A stretch of DNA of 32,000 nt from Planctopirus limnophila DSM 3776 (GCF_000092105.1 NC_014148.1:30001-62000), one strand, 5' to 3'; positions 5,789 through 30,768 are shown, counted from the first letter of the stretch. Numbers and translations: made by a program. Notes: a model not told the origin generated them from the letters alone.

Positions 5789-6784
5789 ATGCTCTCTCCA
5801 TTACGCCCTCACGCTGCTCATCGTCATTCTTTGCGATCCGCATTTACGCTGATCGAACTGCTGGTTGTGATCACCATCATTGCGGTTCTGATTGCCTTGT
5901 TGCTCCCCGCAGTCCAACAGGCCAGAGAAGCATCCCGACGCACTCAATGCAAAAACAATCTGCATCAACTGGGTTTAGGTCTGCATAATCATCATTCGGC
6001 TTATGATGCTTTTCCTTCAACGATCAGTGGCACCATCGATGGTGTCAGTGTTTTCCATGGATGGGGTGCACAGATCCTGCCCTATATGGATCAATCGCCA
6101 CTTTCCGGGATCTACGATTTTCGCCAGCGAAATAACAACGCGGTGAATCGCACAGCCGTTGAAACGCCTCTTTCGTTTCATGTTTGTCCAAGTGTTCCCG
6201 GTGATACCCGGCGGAATTTTCGATTTGTCACAGGTGCCGCTGGATGGGGCGCAGCATCCAGCGATTACATGGGTGTTTCTTCGATTTCGACAACTCAGTA
6301 CACCAACGGATTCGTGGCGACACCTCGCCCGACGAATACCGATGGAGTTTTCCTGTTTTCGAGCAGGCCGGGTACGCCAGGTCGTAAAATCAAGGATGTC
6401 ATTGACGGCACATCGAACACCATGATGGTCTGTGAATCGGCCGGTCGTTCTCACATTTACCGCCTCGGAAACATGGTTGGTAACTGCGATCAGTCCATGC
6501 TCACAGCCACAACGACGGTTGGAAACGCCAATTGTGTTACGATTTCCTCCTGGGCTGAAGCCAATCTGGGAGCATTGCGCGGCTCACTGTCGGATGGAAC
6601 AGACACTCGAGGTCCATGCATGGTGAACTGCACCAACAACTTCCAGATCTACAGCTTTCATGAAGGAAGCGCAAACATTCTGATGGTCGATGGATCGGTT
6701 CGTTCTCTCAGTGAGAATGTCAGCAACGATATCGTGGCTGGTTTGATTACCATTGAAGGTTACGAAGTGCTTGGTGAATTCTGA
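5789..6784 (+). CDS. DUF1559 family protein with prepilin-type N-terminal cleavage/methylation domain
   Basis: It has the N-terminal leader [37 protein letters not shown] and the C-terminal H-X9-DG motif [14 protein letters not shown]. Confidence 0.9.
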
Positions 6785-13556: not shown

Positions 13557-13602
13557 AAGTCAACGCGGGTGAGGTGCCCTTCGTTCAAGTCAACCCGTGT
13601 GA
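13557..13602 (+). repeat. two 16-nt direct repeats exactly 30 bp apart in the long leader of the DUF1559 tandem
   Basis: aagtcaacgcgggtga (13557-13572) and aagtcaacccgtgtga (13587-13602) match at 14 of 16 positions. Confidence 0.35.
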
Positions 13603-13881
13603 AAGACTCGTGAATTCATGATGAGTTCTCGATTCGTTGCTCTTTAAACTGGTTCGAGAAAGCCTGTTTTCACGCAGATTGATCAGTTACGACCTGTTCA
13701 GGACTGCCTAGTGCAGGAGCAGATTTCGCCCACTGGTTGGGCAGCAAACTTACCTTATGTCCCCGGCAGCTCACGGCTTTGGATTTTTGCAGGAGATTTG
13801 GGTTCGCCTGCGAGTTCTGGTCAGCCGCCCACCTTGTTTTCGTACATCCGTCTTTGCCTCGTCATTAGAGAAAGTCAGAAT

Positions 13882-14853
13882 ATGTTCCCTCGTCGTCGCG
13901 GCTTCACTTTGATTGAGCTGCTTGTGGTGATTGCGATCATTGCCGTATTGATCGCTTTATTGTTGCCAGCAGTCCAGCAGGCACGAGAAGCCGCCCGGAG
14001 GACACAGTGCCGCAGTAATCTCAAGCAAATCGGCCTCGCACTGCACAACTACGAGAGCACTTATGGTTGTTACCCGACTCGCACCACGGGATTAACCGCA
14101 AATCCCGATGCCAAGCGACATGGTATGCCAGTGCGACTGTTGCCGTTCATCGATCAAGCCGCCCTTTTCAACACTTACGACTTCCGTCAGCACTGGTATT
14201 TCCCAGTGAACGAACCCGCGATCCGCACTCCATTAACTATCTTTACTTGTCCCTCCGATCCGACGCCGAATGTGGATACTTCGACCTTTACGGTTGACTC
14301 AGTGACTTACAGTACCTTGCAGCGATCCACGACCGACTATGCCGAGAATGGTGGCGTCAGTACTAACCTGACGCTGGCCAGTGGTCTGGTCGATGCCCAG
14401 ACAGTGAACAATCCTGATGGTCCTTTTGAAGACAATTTCAAGATCTGCCGTATCCGAGACATTATTGATGGACTCTCGAACACAATTTTCGTGGGTGAGC
14501 GTGGAGGGGTACCACTGCGATACAATAGTGGTGTTCCTTCTGGAGCAGTGATTCCCGGAACGGGCATGCTTAATACTTCCGATGGTGGTGGTGGCTGGGC
14601 TGATTATCGTCAGGGTGTCCGCATGGCTGGGTCAACAGCTGGGACTGGAGCCAGGAATATCAGTAGCACAACCAATTTTGGTCGATGCGCGATCAACTGC
14701 ACCAATCATGAAGAATATTACAGCTTCCATACAGGTGGTGCTCACTTCCTGATGGGTGATGGCAGTGTGCGATTCAACTCTGAGAACATTAGCATCACGG
14801 TCATGGCCAGGCTCTTATCTGCTCAGGCTGCTGAGGTCGTGGGAGAGTATTAA
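13882..14853 (+). CDS. DUF1559 family protein with prepilin-type N-terminal cleavage/methylation domain
   Basis: Starting at ATG 13882 gives [43 protein letters not shown]. The C-terminal H-X9-DG motif is [14 protein letters not shown]. The GTG 13711 extension adds 57 aa with no family resemblance. Confidence 0.9.
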   Translation: MFPRRRGFTLIELLVVIAIIAVLIALLLPAVQQAREAARRTQCRSNLKQIGLALHNYESTYGCYPTRTTGLTANPDAKRHGMPVRLLPFIDQAALFNTYDFRQHWYFPVNEPAIRTPLTIFTCPSDPTPNVDTSTFTVDSVTYSTLQRSTTDYAENGGVSTNLTLASGLVDAQTVNNPDGPFEDNFKICRIRDIIDGLSNTIFVGERGGVPLRYNSGVPSGAVIPGTGMLNTSDGGGGWADYRQGVRMAGSTAGTGARNISSTTNFGRCAINCTNHEEYYSFHTGGAHFLMGDGSVRFNSENISITVMARLLSAQAAEVVGEY

Positions 14854-14941
14854 CGCACGATATCGGCCTAATGTTGACCGCACTATTCGTTATACATGTC
14901 TATCTTGCGATCTCAGTTTTTTACAGGAGTGATTGGGCTTT

Positions 14942-15913
14942 ATGAAACGTCGTGGATTTACGCTGATTGAGCTGCTCGTTGTCATCGCCATTATTGCAGT
15001 ACTGATTGCACTCCTGTTGCCCGCAGTTCAACAGGCGCGCGAATCGGCCCGGCGAACGCAATGCCGGAACAATCTCAAGCAAATGGGATTGGCACTGCAT
15101 AACTATCATGACCAGTACCAGTGCTTTCCTGCTGGTTTTTATCGCGGTTGGCCATTTGTGAATACGACCACCACACCAACCTCGGGAAGCCCCGGTTGGG
15201 GTTGGCAGACGATGATTTTACCTCAGATTGACCAGGCCCCGCTCTATAACCTGCTGAATGTCGGTGCGAATCGCTTGAACGGTACTGCGACTGTCACTTT
15301 TCAGGGTGTGGCGGGAACGCCCATCAAGGTTCTGGGCCAGCAACCAATTGCTGCCTATCGCTGCCCGAGTGATGTGGGTGCTCGATTGAATCCGAATCGT
15401 GGAGACTACGCGACATCGAACTACCTGGGTGTTTTTGGCCCCGCCTTCGACAATACCGTCGAAGGTTCCGATGCACTCGTTCGCGGGAGCTGGATTGGTC
15501 GAAATCGTGGTATCTTCGGTGCGAACTCCTCGACACAATTCAAGAATATTACAGATGGCACCACCAATACTGTCATGATTGGTGAAATTGCACTGGGATC
15601 TTTCCGCGTCGACTCCGCCGGATTACCAGTCAATTTTAACGGTGGCACCTGGATGGGCTTGTCGTCAGACAATACCTCGAACGTCAATACAGCACTTTCG
15701 CTCTGTGGCTACTGTATCCCCGCGAACACTGGCGCTGTCAATCGTCGGATTAACTCTCCCAACGGTGGAAACGCTTTCAGCAGTTTCCATACAGGTGGGG
15801 CTCATTTTGCCATGGCCGATGGATCGGTGCGTTTCCTGAGCGAGAATCTTGATCTGGATATTGCCGATCGCATTTCCGGAATGGCAGATGGTCTGACTGT
15901 CAGCCTGGATTGA
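14942..15913 (+). CDS. DUF1559 family protein with prepilin-type N-terminal cleavage/methylation domain
   Basis: Starting at ATG 14942 gives [41 protein letters not shown], with AGGAG 12 nt upstream. The C-terminal H-X9-DG motif is [14 protein letters not shown]. Confidence 0.9.
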
Positions 15914-18140: not shown

Positions 18141-19274
18141 ATGCAACTGGTTTGTCCACGTGCTGTGCTGTCTGCAGCGTTCACGGTGGTGGGTGCTGTG
18201 GTTCCTTCCCGGACGCCGCGAGAAATTCTGAAGAACGTCAAGCTGGATGCCGTCGCTTCCGGGCCGGGAGCGACCTCTTCGGCCCAACTGACAGGGACAG
18301 ATGGTGACGGTACGAGTATTCGCTTTGATTTGACAGATGTGGAATGCAAAGTGGGTGGCAGTGCCCTGTTGCCCACACAGCGATTAACGTCGATTTTGCG
18401 GGAACTGACAGACGATACTGTCTCGCTGGAAGTCAATGGCGATGCTGTCTGGCTGCGTTGTGGTGGCAGTGAGTTTCGCCTTTCGGCCGAAGATCCAGCC
18501 GACTTCCCGACAGCACCTGAATTCGTCGAAGAAGATTATTTTGTCGTCCCTGCCGATGTCTTTCGCCGGCTGATCAAGCGAACGCTTTTTGCTACTGATG
18601 CTGAGAGCACGCGGTATGCTTTAGGTGGTGTGCTCGTCGAGATTACTGCGGATCAGGTTCGTATGGCTGCGACAGACAGCCGCCGGTTGGCTGTGGCTGT
18701 CGGGGCATGTTCTGTGGAAGGTCAACCTGTCAGTGGCAGCCAGCAGCCCGTGGTTCCTTCAAAAGCGATGTCACTTATTGAGAAGTCACTGGGTGATGAA
18801 GCGACCAATGTCTGCCTCGCGATTCATACCAATGATATTTCCATTCGGGCTGGTCGTGCATCTATTACCACGCAGCTTGTGCAAGGGCGATTCCCGGATT
18901 ATCGCAAGGTGATCCCCGCCCGCTATGAGGCGGAAATTGACCTGGTCGCATCGACCTTCCTGTCAGCCGTGAGACAGTCACAGGTGGTGACCAACGAAGA
19001 GAGCCGGGGCGTCGACTTTACGTTTGCTGAAGGGACATTGAGACTTGCCAGTAAAGCCGCCGACATTGGACAATCGAAAATCGAATTGCCCATCGGCTAT
19101 CAGGGGAGCGAACTGACGATTCGCTTTGACCCTCGGTTCGTGGGAGATTTCCTGCGTGTGCTGGAGGGTTCGTCCACTGTCCATCTGAAGCTGATCAATG
19201 ATGAAAGCCCTGGCGTGTTCACCACGGATGACGATTACACCTATGTAATCATGCCACTCAGCCGCGACAGTTGA
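18141..19274 (+). CDS. dnaN: DNA polymerase III beta sliding clamp
   Basis: The 377-aa product has a typical DnaN N-terminus (L..A...V...VP.R...PIL.NV.L pattern: AVLSAAFTVVGAVVPSRTPREILKNVKLD) and a three-domain length. It ends in ...YVIMPLSRDS. Confidence 0.95.
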   Translation: MQLVCPRAVLSAAFTVVGAVVPSRTPREILKNVKLDAVASGPGATSSAQLTGTDGDGTSIRFDLTDVECKVGGSALLPTQRLTSILRELTDDTVSLEVNGDAVWLRCGGSEFRLSAEDPADFPTAPEFVEEDYFVVPADVFRRLIKRTLFATDAESTRYALGGVLVEITADQVRMAATDSRRLAVAVGACSVEGQPVSGSQQPVVPSKAMSLIEKSLGDEATNVCLAIHTNDISIRAGRASITTQLVQGRFPDYRKVIPARYEAEIDLVASTFLSAVRQSQVVTNEESRGVDFTFAEGTLRLASKAADIGQSKIELPIGYQGSELTIRFDPRFVGDFLRVLEGSSTVHLKLINDESPGVFTTDDDYTYVIMPLSRDS

Positions 19275-25774: not shown

Positions 25775-26941
25775 ATGAAGATCTGCGAAGTATCGAGGCA
25801 TTGGGGTTCTCTTCTGGATTGGAAAACCATTGGCTTCTGCCTGTCGGGACTGCTGCTGCTGGGCACACTGGAACCAGCTGCGGCCCAGTCGAAATCTTCC
25901 AGAACCAGTGCTTTACAACCGAATACCACGAAGAGTGCTGCCGTTCGAGTTGCCCCGCCTTACAACGACAAAACACCGAAGCGCTACGACCTCACCGCCC
26001 GGGCGAGTGAGATCGATCCCAGAGCCAAAGAGCATCCTGAGATTGGTTTTGTTTTTAACAAAGACGGCAAGCCGCAGGATGTGCAGCATGCCGTCGTCGA
26101 TACGCGCGTCAAACCGCGAGGCAAGCTAGTGATCTGGCTGATGGGCCACAATCAAGGGCTGTTCGAGCGGATCTCTGGCTATGGAATGCATGGCATTCAG
26201 GTGCATTATGCGAATGGCTGGTTTGGCAAGCTCAACAAAGAACCACCACCCGATGAACTCTACCTGGGGCGAATTCGCCTTGAAGCAGCGACGGGCGAAG
26301 ACTTCAGTCCCGACATTGAGATCCCGCTTCCGGACGGCATGGCCGAACGTTCGCGTCAGTTTGTGAAGTGGCTGGCCAAAGAAAATCCTCAGGGGAAATG
26401 GGAGCAATTCCTGACCGAAGAGGGTGATCTCCGCTGGGAAGATGTCATCATGAGTGGGATTTCGCACGGTTCGACGACAGCCGCCCGGTTTGCTGTCCAT
26501 CAGAAGGTGGATCGCGTGGTGATGTTTTCCGGGCCGCGCGATCAATTGGAAGGTTGGTACAAGCTTCCTTCAGCCACGCCGCATGAGCGGTTTTTTGGCT
26601 TTACGCATGTGCTGGATGGTGGCTGGACTGCAGACCATTACTGCCGGTCATGGCTGTTACTGGGGCTCAATGACTTTGGCCCGACTGTGAATGTGGATGA
26701 CGCCAAACCCCCATTCAGCAATACCCGTCGTCTGGTCACGAATGCCAATGTGGGGAACGATGCCAACAATGCTCACGGTGCTTCGGTTCCGGGCGGGCCG
26801 TCTCCCAAAAATTCGAAGGGTGTCTACCTTTATGAGGATGTCTGGAAATACCTGTTCACGCATCCGGTCGATCGGAAGGGCCCGGCAGTCCCTGCAGAAG
26901 CCGATTGCACACTCGAACATAAAGTCAAAGGGAAGAAGTAA
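25775..26941 (+). CDS. exported hypothetical protein, probable alpha/beta-hydrolase fold
   Basis: A signal-like TM segment (IGFCLSGLLLLGTLEPAAAQ) is present, and the RBS GAGGAG lies upstream. There is a nucleophile elbow GISHG in VIMSGISHGSTTAA, with later FSGPRD and NNAHGAS in Ser-Asp-His order. Confidence 0.65.
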   Translation: MKICEVSRHWGSLLDWKTIGFCLSGLLLLGTLEPAAAQSKSSRTSALQPNTTKSAAVRVAPPYNDKTPKRYDLTARASEIDPRAKEHPEIGFVFNKDGKPQDVQHAVVDTRVKPRGKLVIWLMGHNQGLFERISGYGMHGIQVHYANGWFGKLNKEPPPDELYLGRIRLEAATGEDFSPDIEIPLPDGMAERSRQFVKWLAKENPQGKWEQFLTEEGDLRWEDVIMSGISHGSTTAARFAVHQKVDRVVMFSGPRDQLEGWYKLPSATPHERFFGFTHVLDGGWTADHYCRSWLLLGLNDFGPTVNVDDAKPPFSNTRRLVTNANVGNDANNAHGASVPGGPSPKNSKGVYLYEDVWKYLFTHPVDRKGPAVPAEADCTLEHKVKGKK

Positions 26942-27211: not shown

Positions 27212-28471
27212 TTATGTGTTCTTGATGTTCGCAATGCAGAAGCTGCCGTAAGTATGCACGCGGTCTTTCGCATGGAGTTCTTCGGCCAGCGGACGATTGT
27301 ACTCGAGGGCTTCACCCAGAGTTTTCTTCTGGCCGTTCACAGTAACCTGAATGGGATTTACGAACTCACCATTGAGGCCAGCTGAACGCCACAATACGCG
27401 GGCATTGGGGGCGGCTTTGTCCATGATCCCCTGCCATTCCTGAGTGAGGATGGCCATGGCTGGATCTTTGGAAAGCCAATCCATGTGATCGAGCAGAATG
27501 AACCGCGAAATCTGATGCGGCGTTTCCTGCAGGAACCCGAGAATGTGGTTGGTATGTGTGCTCACTCGATCGACGGCCCCAGCCTTGAGCTGTGCGAAGC
27601 CTTCGGGCTTCAAATACTCGGGGCAGCATTCGGGCGTGTACTGGCCTGTGAGGTAAACACGCCAGAAGTAGTTATCCTTGATCGGCAGCTTGGTGAAGAC
27701 GGCTTCGACGCGATCCATCACGAACTGCAGAATCCCACCGGGATACTGCTCATCAATCTGCTTACGCTGAGCTCTGGGAACCCCCAGCAGTGCCAGAGTC
27801 ATATCCCGCCGCATGGCCCAGCGGATAAAGGGCCGCCAGAGTGATTCGGCCAGCTTGTACTGCTTGAAAATATCGCGTTGCTGTTCGAGGCTGCTGGCTG
27901 CCAGGATGGCATTGACCCCGTCACGCAGCTTGGCGATCCGGTCGATGTAAACATTGATAATGTAGGCAAATGTGCCCGAAGTGCAGTGAAAATAGAACGA
28001 CTTGCGGCGGGTATCGCCCGTGAAGAAAGCCTTTTTGCGATCCCAGAACTTGCGGGTGGTATCACTCAGTTCCGGTCGCAGCTTTTGTGTGTAAATGGTG
28101 CTCCACTGGGGATGACCACCATTACCAAAAATTTGAAAGAAGTCTTCGTAATCGAGCTTGCGAATGCCAGCCTGCTTGAGTTCCAGCAGTGCATTCTGCC
28201 GCAGATTCATATCGACCGCATGGACGTGGCCTGCACCGGCCAGTGCATAATCCAAAGCGTTGCAACCGGCGGAAGTGATGACCACCACACGGTCATTTGA
28301 AGTCAGTTCGAGGGCTACCCGGTCTAAGCGAGGGTCTTCCCAGCACTGGTTGTAGACCAGATTTCGGCCATGGACGAGGTTAAACCATGTCTTGCTGAGC
28401 TTTTCGACAACCATCCGTCGATTCCCGGTTGCTGATAGTGGCCACACGGGAATCGGAGCAAGCTTCAGCAC
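27212..28471 (-). CDS. DUF3419 family protein, BtaA-like (S-adenosylmethionine:diacylglycerol 3-amino-3-carboxypropyl transferase family)
   Basis: Family hallmarks are NLVYNQCWEDPRLD and VVVITSAGCNALDYALAGAGHVHAVDMN, at ~400 aa length. The GTG start at 28471 overlaps the upstream stop (GTGCTGA). ATG 28414 (MVVEKL...) is an alternative start. Confidence 0.8.
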   Translation of the reverse strand: MLKLAPIPVWPLSATGNRRMVVEKLSKTWFNLVHGRNLVYNQCWEDPRLDRVALELTSNDRVVVITSAGCNALDYALAGAGHVHAVDMNLRQNALLELKQAGIRKLDYEDFFQIFGNGGHPQWSTIYTQKLRPELSDTTRKFWDRKKAFFTGDTRRKSFYFHCTSGTFAYIINVYIDRIAKLRDGVNAILAASSLEQQRDIFKQYKLAESLWRPFIRWAMRRDMTLALLGVPRAQRKQIDEQYPGGILQFVMDRVEAVFTKLPIKDNYFWRVYLTGQYTPECCPEYLKPEGFAQLKAGAVDRVSTHTNHILGFLQETPHQISRFILLDHMDWLSKDPAMAILTQEWQGIMDKAAPNARVLWRSAGLNGEFVNPIQVTVNGQKKTLGEALEYNRPLAEELHAKDRVHTYGSFCIANIKNT

Positions 28472-29700
28472 GGGACAGCAGCCAGATCCTGAGGTGCCAA
28501 TTCACTGCAGGCACAGGCCAGGGCAGGAATGGGCAGAGGCAAGCTGTTGTTCGTCACCGAAGTTTCATGGCTGCAATCTGCAGCACTCGTTTTCCGCGTG
28601 GAGAAAGTTTCAAAGTAATGGATCAATTCCATCTCTCCATGGGCATATTCCACAAACGCGGTGCAATTCTCAACCCAGTCCCCGGTGTTGCAGTACACGA
28701 TTCCGTGACGGTGGTCATGTGCGGGGGTATGGATGTGGCCGCAGATCACCCCTTCGCAACCTTGTTCAAGGGCATACCTGGCCAGACGTTGCTCGAAGGA
28801 GCTGATGTATCGAACAGCCTGTTTGACGCTCCGTTTGACGCGACCGCTGAATGAATAACTGCCACTGGCCGGGGCTTTAAACCATCGGCTGAAGAGCCAG
28901 TTGGCCGAAAGCAGCAAGTCGTAACCAATCGAGGCAACGCCTGAGACCCACTGCGCGCTTTGTTCGACGACATCGAATTTATCGCCGTGAATGACCAGAT
29001 ACTTCCGGCCATCGGCCGCTTCAAAGACAAATTCATCTTCAATCGTGACGAAATCAAACCCCCATTGGAACCGGCGTAAGAACGCATCGTGATTTCCAGG
29101 AGTGAGATAGATTTTTGTGCCGGAGGCGGCCAGATCGTGCAGTCGCGAGAGAATATCGTTGTACACCTGCTTCCAGGCGAACGATTTTTTCAGCTTCCAG
29201 CCATCGATAATGTCACCCACGAGATAGAGCGATTCGGGCTCGACACTCCGTAGAAAATCGAGAAGTTCGACTGCGTGGGCATGTCGGCAACCGAGATGAG
29301 TATCGCTGACAAAGACCGTCCGGATTGCTCGTTCCTGTCGATCTTCGATGGGCGAAAGTCGGCTTTCAACCGAAACACCACGCTCTCGAGGAGCCGGAAA
29401 TTCGCCGAGCAGATCCTTTCCCCGTTTTTGATCCTCACCAGGATGTCTGGGCGCGGGACGCTGAGATCCTGCTGGCCGCCAGTTCCATTCGAGTTGCTCA
29501 AGGGCTTCTCGACCGGGTAGAAAGTGCGTATTTCGTACCGAATGAACGTCAGGCAAAGTTGCCGAAACTTCGGGACTGGATGACAGAAATCGACCTTGAT
29601 TTCCTTCATCAAGCGTGCTGCCGGGGTGCTCGCCATTGGCAAACTCTCGCCCGACAGCCATGGAATTCACAAGCATTTTCGTGGCCCCCTGCAGGATCAC
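28465..29700 (-). CDS. LpxH/COG2908-type calcineurin-like metallophosphoesterase (PlcP-like candidate) with a non-homologous N-terminal extension
   Basis: Metallophosphoesterase motifs occur in order: FVSDTHLG, LVGDIIDGWKL, TPGNHD, VIHGDKFD, CGHIHTP, NTGDW. The catalytic domain begins near residue 127. Confidence 0.8.
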   Translation of the reverse strand: MILQGATKMLVNSMAVGREFANGEHPGSTLDEGNQGRFLSSSPEVSATLPDVHSVRNTHFLPGREALEQLEWNWRPAGSQRPAPRHPGEDQKRGKDLLGEFPAPRERGVSVESRLSPIEDRQERAIRTVFVSDTHLGCRHAHAVELLDFLRSVEPESLYLVGDIIDGWKLKKSFAWKQVYNDILSRLHDLAASGTKIYLTPGNHDAFLRRFQWGFDFVTIEDEFVFEAADGRKYLVIHGDKFDVVEQSAQWVSGVASIGYDLLLSANWLFSRWFKAPASGSYSFSGRVKRSVKQAVRYISSFEQRLARYALEQGCEGVICGHIHTPAHDHRHGIVYCNTGDWVENCTAFVEYAHGEMELIHYFETFSTRKTSAADCSHETSVTNNSLPLPIPALACACSELAPQDLAAVPC

Positions 29701-29926
29701 CCGCCAGATGATTCAGCCCGAAACTGTGCCAGAGGTGATTGTCTCCCAGAACGAAAACCTCTGACCAGAACTTCTGGCTACCTGTCACCGGAGGAGCCTG
29801 CCGACATTGGCAGCATTGCCACGATCCACGCTTTGGGAGCAGCAAAATCAACTTCCCCAGCTTCATATATCATCCAAAACAACATGGTTTCGCGATGAAT
29901 CTCTGGTGAAAGTTCCGCGAATCTCT

Positions 29927-29961
29927 CTCTCAAATCGAACTTTTCTCACGATTTTTGAGAG
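29927..29961 (-). terminator. bulged stem-loop immediately 3' of the methyltransferase gene
   Basis: ctctcaaatcg (29927-29937) pairs with cgatttttgagag (29949-29961), giving 8+3 bp with a 2-nt bulge. There is no U-tract. Confidence 0.3.
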
Positions 29962-29973
29962 CCGCTTTGAACA

Positions 29974-30768
29974 TCAGGCGGCTTTGCGAGCCAGAACCTG
30001 AATCTCGGTGCAGAGCGAAGGCAACGTCTCGCCGGCAGTGCGATTCAATTGCCACCACCACTTCTGGTTTTCCAGCGGCCGGAGCAATCCGCCCGAAAAA
30101 ATACGAAAACCTCGGGCTGCGACAACTTTGACCGGGGCATGCTGAGTCACGGCGCCAATAAATGTCCGCTTGCTGAAAGCCTGCAGGTGGCCGCGTGGTT
30201 TCTTTTTGCCCACGAGTTTATCCACAGCAGGAACCAGATGTTTGCGAACGAGATGAATTCCTTCCGGGAAGATCGGCACTCCGACAATCAGCAATCCCCC
30301 CGGAGCCAGCACCCGACCCAGAGTCGAAATGGCATCATCAACAGTGGGAAGATGCTCCAGTACCTGCTCGCAGACGACCAGATCGAACTGATTCGATTCC
30401 AGAAAATTGAGGCCTCCCATGAGATCGCCGGCATTGAGACTGGCCCAGTTTTCCGGCTTGTAAATGGTCGGTTGCAGAGTGAGATCGACCCCATGCAGAT
30501 CGACAATTTCTGAACCTGGCAGCGCTTCGACATAACGCATGAGCACGCCATTCCAGATCCCCACGTCGAGAATCTTGAGACGACGACCGCGAGCCTGGAA
30601 TTCGGGAATCAGCCGGGCAATTTCTTCACTGACGGCATGATACCGCGCCTGTCTCAAGCTGTACTTTTCTGGCCGAGTCGGATCGACTCCATACGCCAGC
30701 GAAGGCACTTTTGCCGTACTAGTATTTGATTCAGAAACCAGTTGGCTGGTCTTTGTATGAGCGTCCAT
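29974..30768 (-). CDS. class I SAM-dependent methyltransferase
   Basis: The SAM-binding core is KILDVGIWNGVL, followed by FDLVVCEQVLEHLP and LAPGGLLIVGVP. Confidence 0.85.
   Translation of the reverse strand: MDAHTKTSQLVSESNTSTAKVPSLAYGVDPTRPEKYSLRQARYHAVSEEIARLIPEFQARGRRLKILDVGIWNGVLMRYVEALPGSEIVDLHGVDLTLQPTIYKPENWASLNAGDLMGGLNFLESNQFDLVVCEQVLEHLPTVDDAISTLGRVLAPGGLLIVGVPIFPEGIHLVRKHLVPAVDKLVGKKKPRGHLQAFSKRTFIGAVTQHAPVKVVAARGFRIFSGGLLRPLENQKWWWQLNRTAGETLPSLCTEIQVLARKAA

Follow-up and report, generated by a model that had tools for sequence, protein, structure and literature searches.

A probable plcP-btaA lipid-remodelling module with its own upstream control region in Planctopirus limnophila

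A plcP-btaA pair with a distant btaB

Here, we analysed a 32-kb stretch of the Planctopirus limnophila DSM 3776 genome (NC_014148.1:30001-62000, "the window"), and in it a minus-strand locus at 27212-30768 that encodes an S-adenosylmethionine (SAM)-dependent methyltransferase, a metallophosphoesterase and a DUF3419 protein. Our analysis indicates, with a probability of roughly 0.78, that this locus is a two-gene plcP-btaA lipid-remodelling module with its own upstream control region, extending from about 29929 to 27212 on the minus strand, that btaB lies at a distance, and that the methyltransferase is unrelated to the module. An earlier note on this DNA had proposed that all three steps from phospholipid to the betaine lipid diacylglyceryl-trimethylhomoserine (DGTS) are linked here. 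The three same-strand genes were found where the note had placed them, and every peptide motif that it quoted was present in the translations. The three-step linkage had to be abandoned, since the methyltransferase matched the Sinorhizobium meliloti BtaB only at E 0.58 and btaB is encoded far away (ADG69813.1).

In the pathway that we propose, PlcP, an intracellular phospholipase C of the metallophosphoesterase type, would cleave zwitterionic phospholipids into diacylglycerol and a phosphoalcohol, thereby freeing phosphorus. BtaA would then use SAM to transfer a 3-amino-3-carboxypropyl (homoserine) group onto that diacylglycerol, yielding diacylglyceryl-homoserine (DGHS), and the distant canonical BtaB (in P. 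limnophila ADG69813.1) would trimethylate DGHS to DGTS. These three activities are predicted by homology to characterised enzymes. The methyltransferase would have been brought beside plcP by a genus-specific rearrangement and would form a transcription unit of its own.

The DUF3419 protein matched Pfam PF11899 nearly over its full length (E 1.7e-126, profile positions 3-383 of 385), as expected from the BtaA family assignment made in the earlier note, and aligned with Sinorhizobium btaA regions at 29-31% identity over 96-100% of the length. Both JGI and NCBI call its homologues BtaA, and the UniProt entry D5SMH6 already carries a BtaA-like label. A PDB sequence search with BtaA gave no match. 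Judged from these alignments, the protein is a full-length BtaA orthologue, with a predicted activity of forming DGHS from diacylglycerol and SAM.

The phosphoesterase resembles PlcP rather than LpxH

The phosphoesterase matched Pfam Metallophos PF00149 (E 6e-13, from residue 127 of the 411-amino acid (aa) open reading frame (ORF)), and its metal-binding motifs (DxH, GD, GNHD, HGD, GHxH) are intact, with SDTHLG, VGDIIDGW, GNHD, VIHGD and CGHIH aligning with the PlcPs of S. meliloti and Pseudomonas aeruginosa. The catalytic domain showed 44% identity (199 bits) to the S. meliloti PlcP-type protein and 41% identity (193 bits) to the P. aeruginosa PA3219-type protein, compared with 23% identity and 47 bits for Escherichia coli LpxH, and the tblastn search of S. 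meliloti with the phosphoesterase gave E 5e-55. Moreover, it carries the PlcP-specific motifs GDIIDGWKL and NTGDWVENCTA. When the catalytic domain was compared with that of P. hydrillae, 26 of 27 mismatches were at codon position 3.

Automated annotation points to another function, that of LpxH, in which case the phosphoesterase would serve the cell's lipid A pathway and stand beside btaA by coincidence. Many homologues are called UDP-2,3-diacylglucosamine diphosphatase by NCBI and JGI, and the top NCBIfam and PDB matches are LpxH. However, the scores fell far below the equivalog cut-offs (59.5 bits against a cut-off of 134 for NCBIfam LpxH NF003743, and 42.9 bits against 190.35 for TIGR01854), and the solved LpxH structures matched at E ~1e-6 to 2e-6 at best in the PDB sequence search. 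The P. aeruginosa PlcP, although characterised, bears the same automated label. In addition, the gene adjoins btaA here and lies beside btaA-btaB and glycosyltransferase genes in relatives, a linkage that recurs in Planctomycetaceae. We therefore regard LpxH function as extremely unlikely. Because the phosphoesterase scored about 4-fold higher against PlcPs than against LpxH and fell short of the LpxH cut-offs, we assign it to the PlcP type and not to LpxH, in line with the earlier note, and the automated LpxH label is probably wrong. A grouping with true LpxH, which the earlier note had named among the signs against its proposal, was not seen.

Most PlcP homologues are ~290 aa long. The window protein has in addition an N-terminal extension of ~110 aa, which occurred only in Planctopirus and in the sister lineage, the metagenome-assembled genome (MAG) Planctomyces sp. 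DS3.3.33. The extension appears to be disordered and includes a few conserved islands (FANGEH, LEWNWRP and LL.EFP); the catalytic domain showed a stronger codon-position mismatch pattern.

The adjacent methyltransferase is not BtaB

We then considered the reading of the earlier note, which unites the three genes in one module and has the methyltransferase upstream of plcP convert DGHS to DGTS, either as a BtaB orthologue or as a functional substitute. In all three Planctopirus species the methyltransferase gene adjoins plcP in the same orientation, and it encodes a class I SAM-dependent enzyme under purifying selection, 46 of its 54 mismatches to P. hydrillae being at codon position 3. However, it gave only generic Pfam matches (Methyltransf_23/11/12), and a PDB sequence search with it returned generic methyltransferases only. 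Besides the S. meliloti comparison, it matched the BtaB-like protein of locus L001 (L numbers denote the loci fetched for comparison) at E 0.008 and P. limnophila BtaB at E 0.004, whereas the methyltransferase downstream in L001 matched S. meliloti BtaB at E 2e-21. The alignment further showed that the N-terminal block that precedes the SAM motif in BtaB (FYSGQA.GYD.FRRR.LHGR) is missing. A tblastn search of the 32-kb window with three BtaB references found no BtaB-like ORF, and only the generic methyltransferase-fold similarity of the upstream gene appeared (E 0.04). Thus the earlier note's own caveat, that the methyltransferase might not be a BtaB orthologue, proved correct.

A canonical BtaB was found elsewhere in the genus. 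A look-up of the exact-sequence cluster of the sister-lineage BtaB returned members in all three Planctopirus species: ADG69813.1 in P. limnophila DSM 3776, ODA29009.1 in P. hydrillae and QDV28702.1 in P. ephydatiae. ADG69813.1 shows 93% identity to the sister BtaB and 33% to S. meliloti BtaB (E 6e-28). In P. limnophila, the accession numbers place btaB far from plcP-btaA, with ADG69813 and the cluster ADG65896-98 separated by ~3,900 numbers; in P. ephydatiae, btaB is QDV28702 and the cluster QDV28881-83, and in P. hydrillae btaB is on a different contig from plcP-btaA. On sequence grounds the PlcP/BtaA/BtaB pathway is complete in the genus and split over two loci.

Synteny placed the methyltransferase outside the module as well. 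When GTDB genomes were surveyed with an alignment of planctomycete BtaBs as the query, at least 80 loci were obtained, and the counts given here are among the matches listed. In 43 of these 80 loci btaA lies directly upstream of btaB, five of the 43 having plcP as well; btaB stands alone in 27 (no btaA in at least 1.5 kb of available upstream sequence), btaA is nearby in another arrangement in three, and seven are too short to judge. The plcP-btaA-btaB order was found in L001, L008 and L021, with the L001 BtaA 79% identical to that of the window, and plcP-btaA without btaB in L006 and L092, so that plcP and btaA form a conserved pair. Neither the 80 related BtaB loci nor the other plcP-btaA loci contained a methyltransferase of the window type, which adjoins plcP-btaA only in the three species of Planctopirus. 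Its orthologues in other Planctomycetaceae (55-65% identity) stand in unrelated contexts, one of which is a putative lipopolysaccharide-core/glycosyltransferase cluster (PF06293 Kdo family, GT2, GT4, PMT_2).

The sister lineage (L092, BtaA 94% identical) was informative about the history of the locus. Its plcP-btaA contig has a beta-lactamase gene upstream and no methyltransferase, and another contig carries 3keto-disac_hyd, the methyltransferase, GD_AH, a 586-aa protein, a kinase and canonical btaB, with ~6 kb between the methyltransferase and btaB. Nucleotide homology between the sister lineage and the window extends only from 29922 to 27210, from the repeat motif described below to the btaA stop; therefore, the portable unit consists of the control region, plcP and btaA. 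From this comparison, the methyltransferase appears to have become a neighbour of plcP only in Planctopirus, where ~300 nt with a separate conserved control region lie between the two genes. Taken together, these results argue that the upstream methyltransferase is an unrelated neighbour and not BtaB, and we consider a single three-gene module very unlikely. That the methyltransferase was recruited into the pathway by juxtaposition is a more speculative idea, and its chance is similarly slim. A methyltransferase beside btaA is not automatically BtaB.

The survey also gives sequence-level support to the view that Planctomycetaceae carry a complete PlcP/BtaA/BtaB betaine-lipid route, often in one cluster and sometimes together with a glycosyltransferase. 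The phylum has been known more for its ornithine and trimethylornithine lipids. As a side observation, the order plcP-btaA-btaB-glycosyltransferase (Glyco_trans_1_3) was seen in three loci (L101:4397-10497, L057:3686-8180 and L064:3604-8057), joining the betaine-lipid and glycolipid branches at one locus, and L101 adds an Exo_endo_phos gene. Maioricimonas (L008:8737-12079) showed another arrangement: within a few kb of its plcP-btaA-btaB cluster lies a second PlcP paralogue, with a Glyco_trans_1_3 glycosyltransferase and a radical SAM/SPASM gene downstream.

A conserved control region lies upstream of plcP

The region 29929-29677 differs from P. hydrillae by 3 mismatches in 253 nt (~99% identity), compared with ~93% identity in coding sequence, where at least 85% of mismatches are at codon position 3, and ~17% mismatched third codon positions in the flanking genes. 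At its upstream end are four pentamers with 11-bp spacing (TTCGC 29921-17, TTCAC 29910-06, TTCAT 29899-95 and ACCAT 29888-84), framed by the inverted repeat TTCGCG...CGCGAA. The exact motif TTCAY-N6-TTCAY occurred 16 times in ~1.0 Mb of fetched loci (both strands, 2.0 Mb), eight of which precede plcP in sense orientation. With at most one mismatch, it was found in seven of eight plcP-first loci (0.04 expected per region). Moreover, a weight matrix built from six sites had its two best non-training matches upstream of plcP, in L087 and L006. L101 has the exact motif upstream of plcP, and L008 has one-mismatch copies upstream of both plcP paralogues. In L057 and L064 the motif appears again in front of an HNH endonuclease gene farther downstream, and an exact copy is present at window ~13599-13614, which is intergenic and upstream of a DUF1559 gene.

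Repeats spaced by 11 bp resemble the binding sites of OmpR/PhoB-family regulators. We know of no Pho box defined for planctomycetes. The tandem repeat is a candidate Pho box, through which phosphate limitation might induce the genes. The window plcP and btaA are 50 nt apart, a gap compatible with their co-transcription.

The ~200 nt between the repeat and plcP may be a structured RNA. Its conserved sequence blocks are also present in the sister MAG, and the RNAalifold consensus pairs GGAUGAU (29875-69) with AUCAUCU (29712-06). The consensus fold had eight compensatory pairs, compared with 0-2 in slid controls, from effectively two lineages, and the z-score of single-sequence folding was only -1.6. 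A search of 29200-30100 against Rfam gave no match. A metagenome scan with the 19-nt operator core found one P. hydrillae-like contig and no further sequences for covariation; three other matches, two of which (L095 and L096) have identical flanks, lacked flanking similarity and were taken as chance. The leader also contains a small ORF (29866-29609, 85 aa), which was rejected because a 2-nt indel in the sister MAG breaks its frame.

Given these features, we tentatively suggest, as a possibility that we would not favour at present, that plcP-btaA of the Planctopirus clade is under a cis-regulatory unit that has not been described before, consisting of a TTCAY operator common to plcP of Planctomycetaceae, a structured leader of ~200 nt without an Rfam family, and the lineage-specific PlcP extension. 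If so, lipid remodelling under phosphorus stress would have a new regulatory variant in the operator, leader and extension. Of the new leads, the tandem repeat specific to plcP and the conserved leader are the most useful, as handles on phosphate-stress regulation in the phylum, and P. limnophila DSM 3776, which is cultivable and genetically tractable, is an organism for direct tests.

The predicted end product

It could also be that plcP-btaA acts without btaB, the distant gene not being co-expressed, and that the product is DGHS or another lipid derived from diacylglycerol. The distance of hundreds of genes to btaB fits this idea, as does the absence of the TTCAY repeat ahead of btaB genes that stand alone, among them that of the sister lineage. 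However, the 93% identity between the BtaBs of Planctopirus and the sister lineage suggests that the enzyme is still functional, and separation of btaA from btaB is common among the surveyed loci. Further, plcP and btaAB are unlinked in S. meliloti and yet act together (PMC3972451). We therefore consider a pathway ending before BtaB unlikely, and prefer the two-gene plcP-btaA module working with a distant BtaB.

Several observations weigh against this preferred reading. The S. meliloti PlcP reference was identified indirectly, as the single chromosomal homologue with 47% identity to PA3219 (published value 46%, PMC8528852). The ~110-aa extension could change the activity or localisation of PlcP. 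The TTCAY motif with at most one mismatch occurred in only 3 of 38 btaA-first and 1 of 28 btaB-alone loci, which is no enrichment and leaves a shared Pho regulon unproven. On the minus strand of the gap between the methyltransferase and plcP, a scan showed neither an intrinsic terminator nor a sigma-70-like promoter. Finally, a literature search for DGTS or betaine lipids, or for lipidomic or genetic tests, in Planctopirus or any other planctomycete found nothing, and because it yielded no biochemical or lipidomic data, we speak of DGTS production in planctomycetes as a prediction.

Comparison with characterised systems

The plcP-btaA pair is real, and the pairing is already known from other bacteria. 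The earlier note knew of no characterisation of this arrangement in Planctomycetota; that statement needs qualifying, as the order plcP-btaA-btaB is the type 1 plcP context of Sebastián et al. 2016 (PMC4796936), which was validated in Phaeobacter sp. MED193 with mutants. BtaA and BtaB sequences from planctomycetes are also present in published phylogenies.

As in the type 1 cluster of marine Alphaproteobacteria, plcP immediately precedes btaA in Planctopirus, the two genes sharing one strand, and a candidate regulator site lies ahead of plcP; the planctomycete relatives L001, L008, L021 and L101 show the full gene order. In contrast, Planctopirus belongs to another phylum, its btaB lies outside the cluster, its PlcP carries the ~110-aa extension, and a TTCAY tandem repeat occupies the upstream site in place of the CTGTCAT Pho box of proteobacteria. 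Mutants were made in the type 1 system, whereas the Planctopirus module is known from sequence alone.

The S. meliloti pathway, whose logic has been described (PMC3972451), involves the same three enzyme families (PlcP, there SMc00171, 44%; BtaA ~30%; and BtaB ADG69813 33% identity), and there too the genes are not all linked. The separation is different: S. meliloti has btaA next to btaB with plcP elsewhere, whereas Planctopirus has plcP next to btaA with btaB elsewhere. Among the S. meliloti sequences, we noticed that CP090106.1 (L003 and L097; 3.72 Mb), which PLSDB lists as "S. meliloti plasmid pSymB", holds btaA/btaB and plcP-type genes that have SMc (chromosomal) tags in the literature, and it appears to be a chromosome under a wrong label. 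Its btaA region has no annotated coding sequence and aligns in two pieces, and may be frameshifted in that strain.

PA3219-PA3218 of P. aeruginosa is a characterised plcP-agt1 operon (Jones et al. 2021, PMC8528852). The gene of the PA3219-type reference compared above is likewise followed by a glycosyltransferase gene, in agreement with that pair. As in Planctopirus, a PlcP homologue (41% identity) is paired with an enzyme that consumes diacylglycerol to make a surrogate lipid, and both PlcPs are labelled UDP-2,3-diacylglucosamine diphosphatase. The partner there is a glycolipid-making glycosyltransferase, whereas it is BtaA here, and L057, L064 and L101 have both partners. LpxH shares the metallophosphoesterase superfamily and overall architecture with the Planctopirus protein and is its closest solved structure, but differs in the low identity and scores given above, in the PlcP-specific motifs and in genomic context.

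Gene boundaries and neighbouring genes

The features of the locus are listed in Table 1. The three minus-strand ORFs were confirmed at 29974-30768 (264 aa), 28465-29700 (411-aa ORF) and 27212-28471 (419-aa ORF). Their products are 100% identical to ADG65898.1 (methyltransferase) and ADG65896.1 (DUF3419 protein) of P. limnophila DSM 3776 and, for the phosphoesterase, to P. limnophila WP_148226927.1 (403 aa), the GenBank model for which in DSM 3776 (ADG65897.1) has 363 aa. The best-supported start of plcP in the sequence is ATG 29676, giving 403 aa. The gap between the methyltransferase and plcP is 273 nt (29701-29973) from the ORF ends, as the earlier note had it, and 297 nt from ATG 29676.

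Table 1. Minus-strand features of the plcP-btaA locus and the adjacent methyltransferase gene (window coordinates)
Feature	Position	Strand	Basis
Methyltransferase, class I SAM-dependent; neighbour outside the module	29974..30768	-	Generic Pfam matches, ADG65898.1
Tandem pentamers, candidate response-regulator operator	29884..29921	-	Sequence reading and motif scans
plcP 5' leader, possibly structured RNA	29677..29885	-	Conservation and RNAalifold
plcP, predicted phospholipase C, 403 aa	28465..29676	-	Pfam Metallophos and score comparison
plcP catalytic domain	28465-29346	-	Within plcP
plcP clade-specific N-terminal extension, ~110 aa	29347-29676	-	Within plcP
btaA (DUF3419), SAM:diacylglycerol 3-amino-3-carboxypropyl transferase homologue, 400 aa	27212..28414	-	Pfam, homologue lengths

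The start of btaA is likely ATG 28414, because almost all homologues have 398-400 aa and the alternative GTG is out of frame in P. hydrillae; RefSeq also lists the 419-aa model for P. limnophila. The string GTGCTGA, in which the plcP stop overlaps that GTG, is present at 28465-28471, and the earlier note had taken it to fit translational coupling. This coupling is not conserved. In P. hydrillae (L005), a 1-nt insertion between GTG 28471 and ATG 28414 (window ~28421) puts the GTG out of frame, and a 16-nt insertion (window ~28523) ends the C-terminal tail of PlcP early. Because of these two insertions, the stop/start overlap is not conserved within Planctopirus, and the PlcP tail and the plcP-btaA junction vary within the genus. 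None of the plcP-btaA loci with listed gene calls (L001, L006, L008, L092, L005 and L101) has overlapping genes; their gaps are 47-109 nt in five loci and 536 nt in L101.

Other genes of the window lie outside the module. A 388-aa protein is encoded on the plus strand at 25775-26941, in convergent orientation to btaA. Its N-terminus is signal-peptide-like, and its sequence contains a GxSxG-type motif (GISHG); it had no Pfam match, and it is kept in P. hydrillae and absent at the sister-lineage locus. The dnaN gene is at window 18141-19274. Three paralogous DUF1559/N-terminal-methylation (pseudopilin-like) genes are on the plus strand at 5789-6784, 13711-14853 and 14933-15913, a gene type typical of Planctomycetes.

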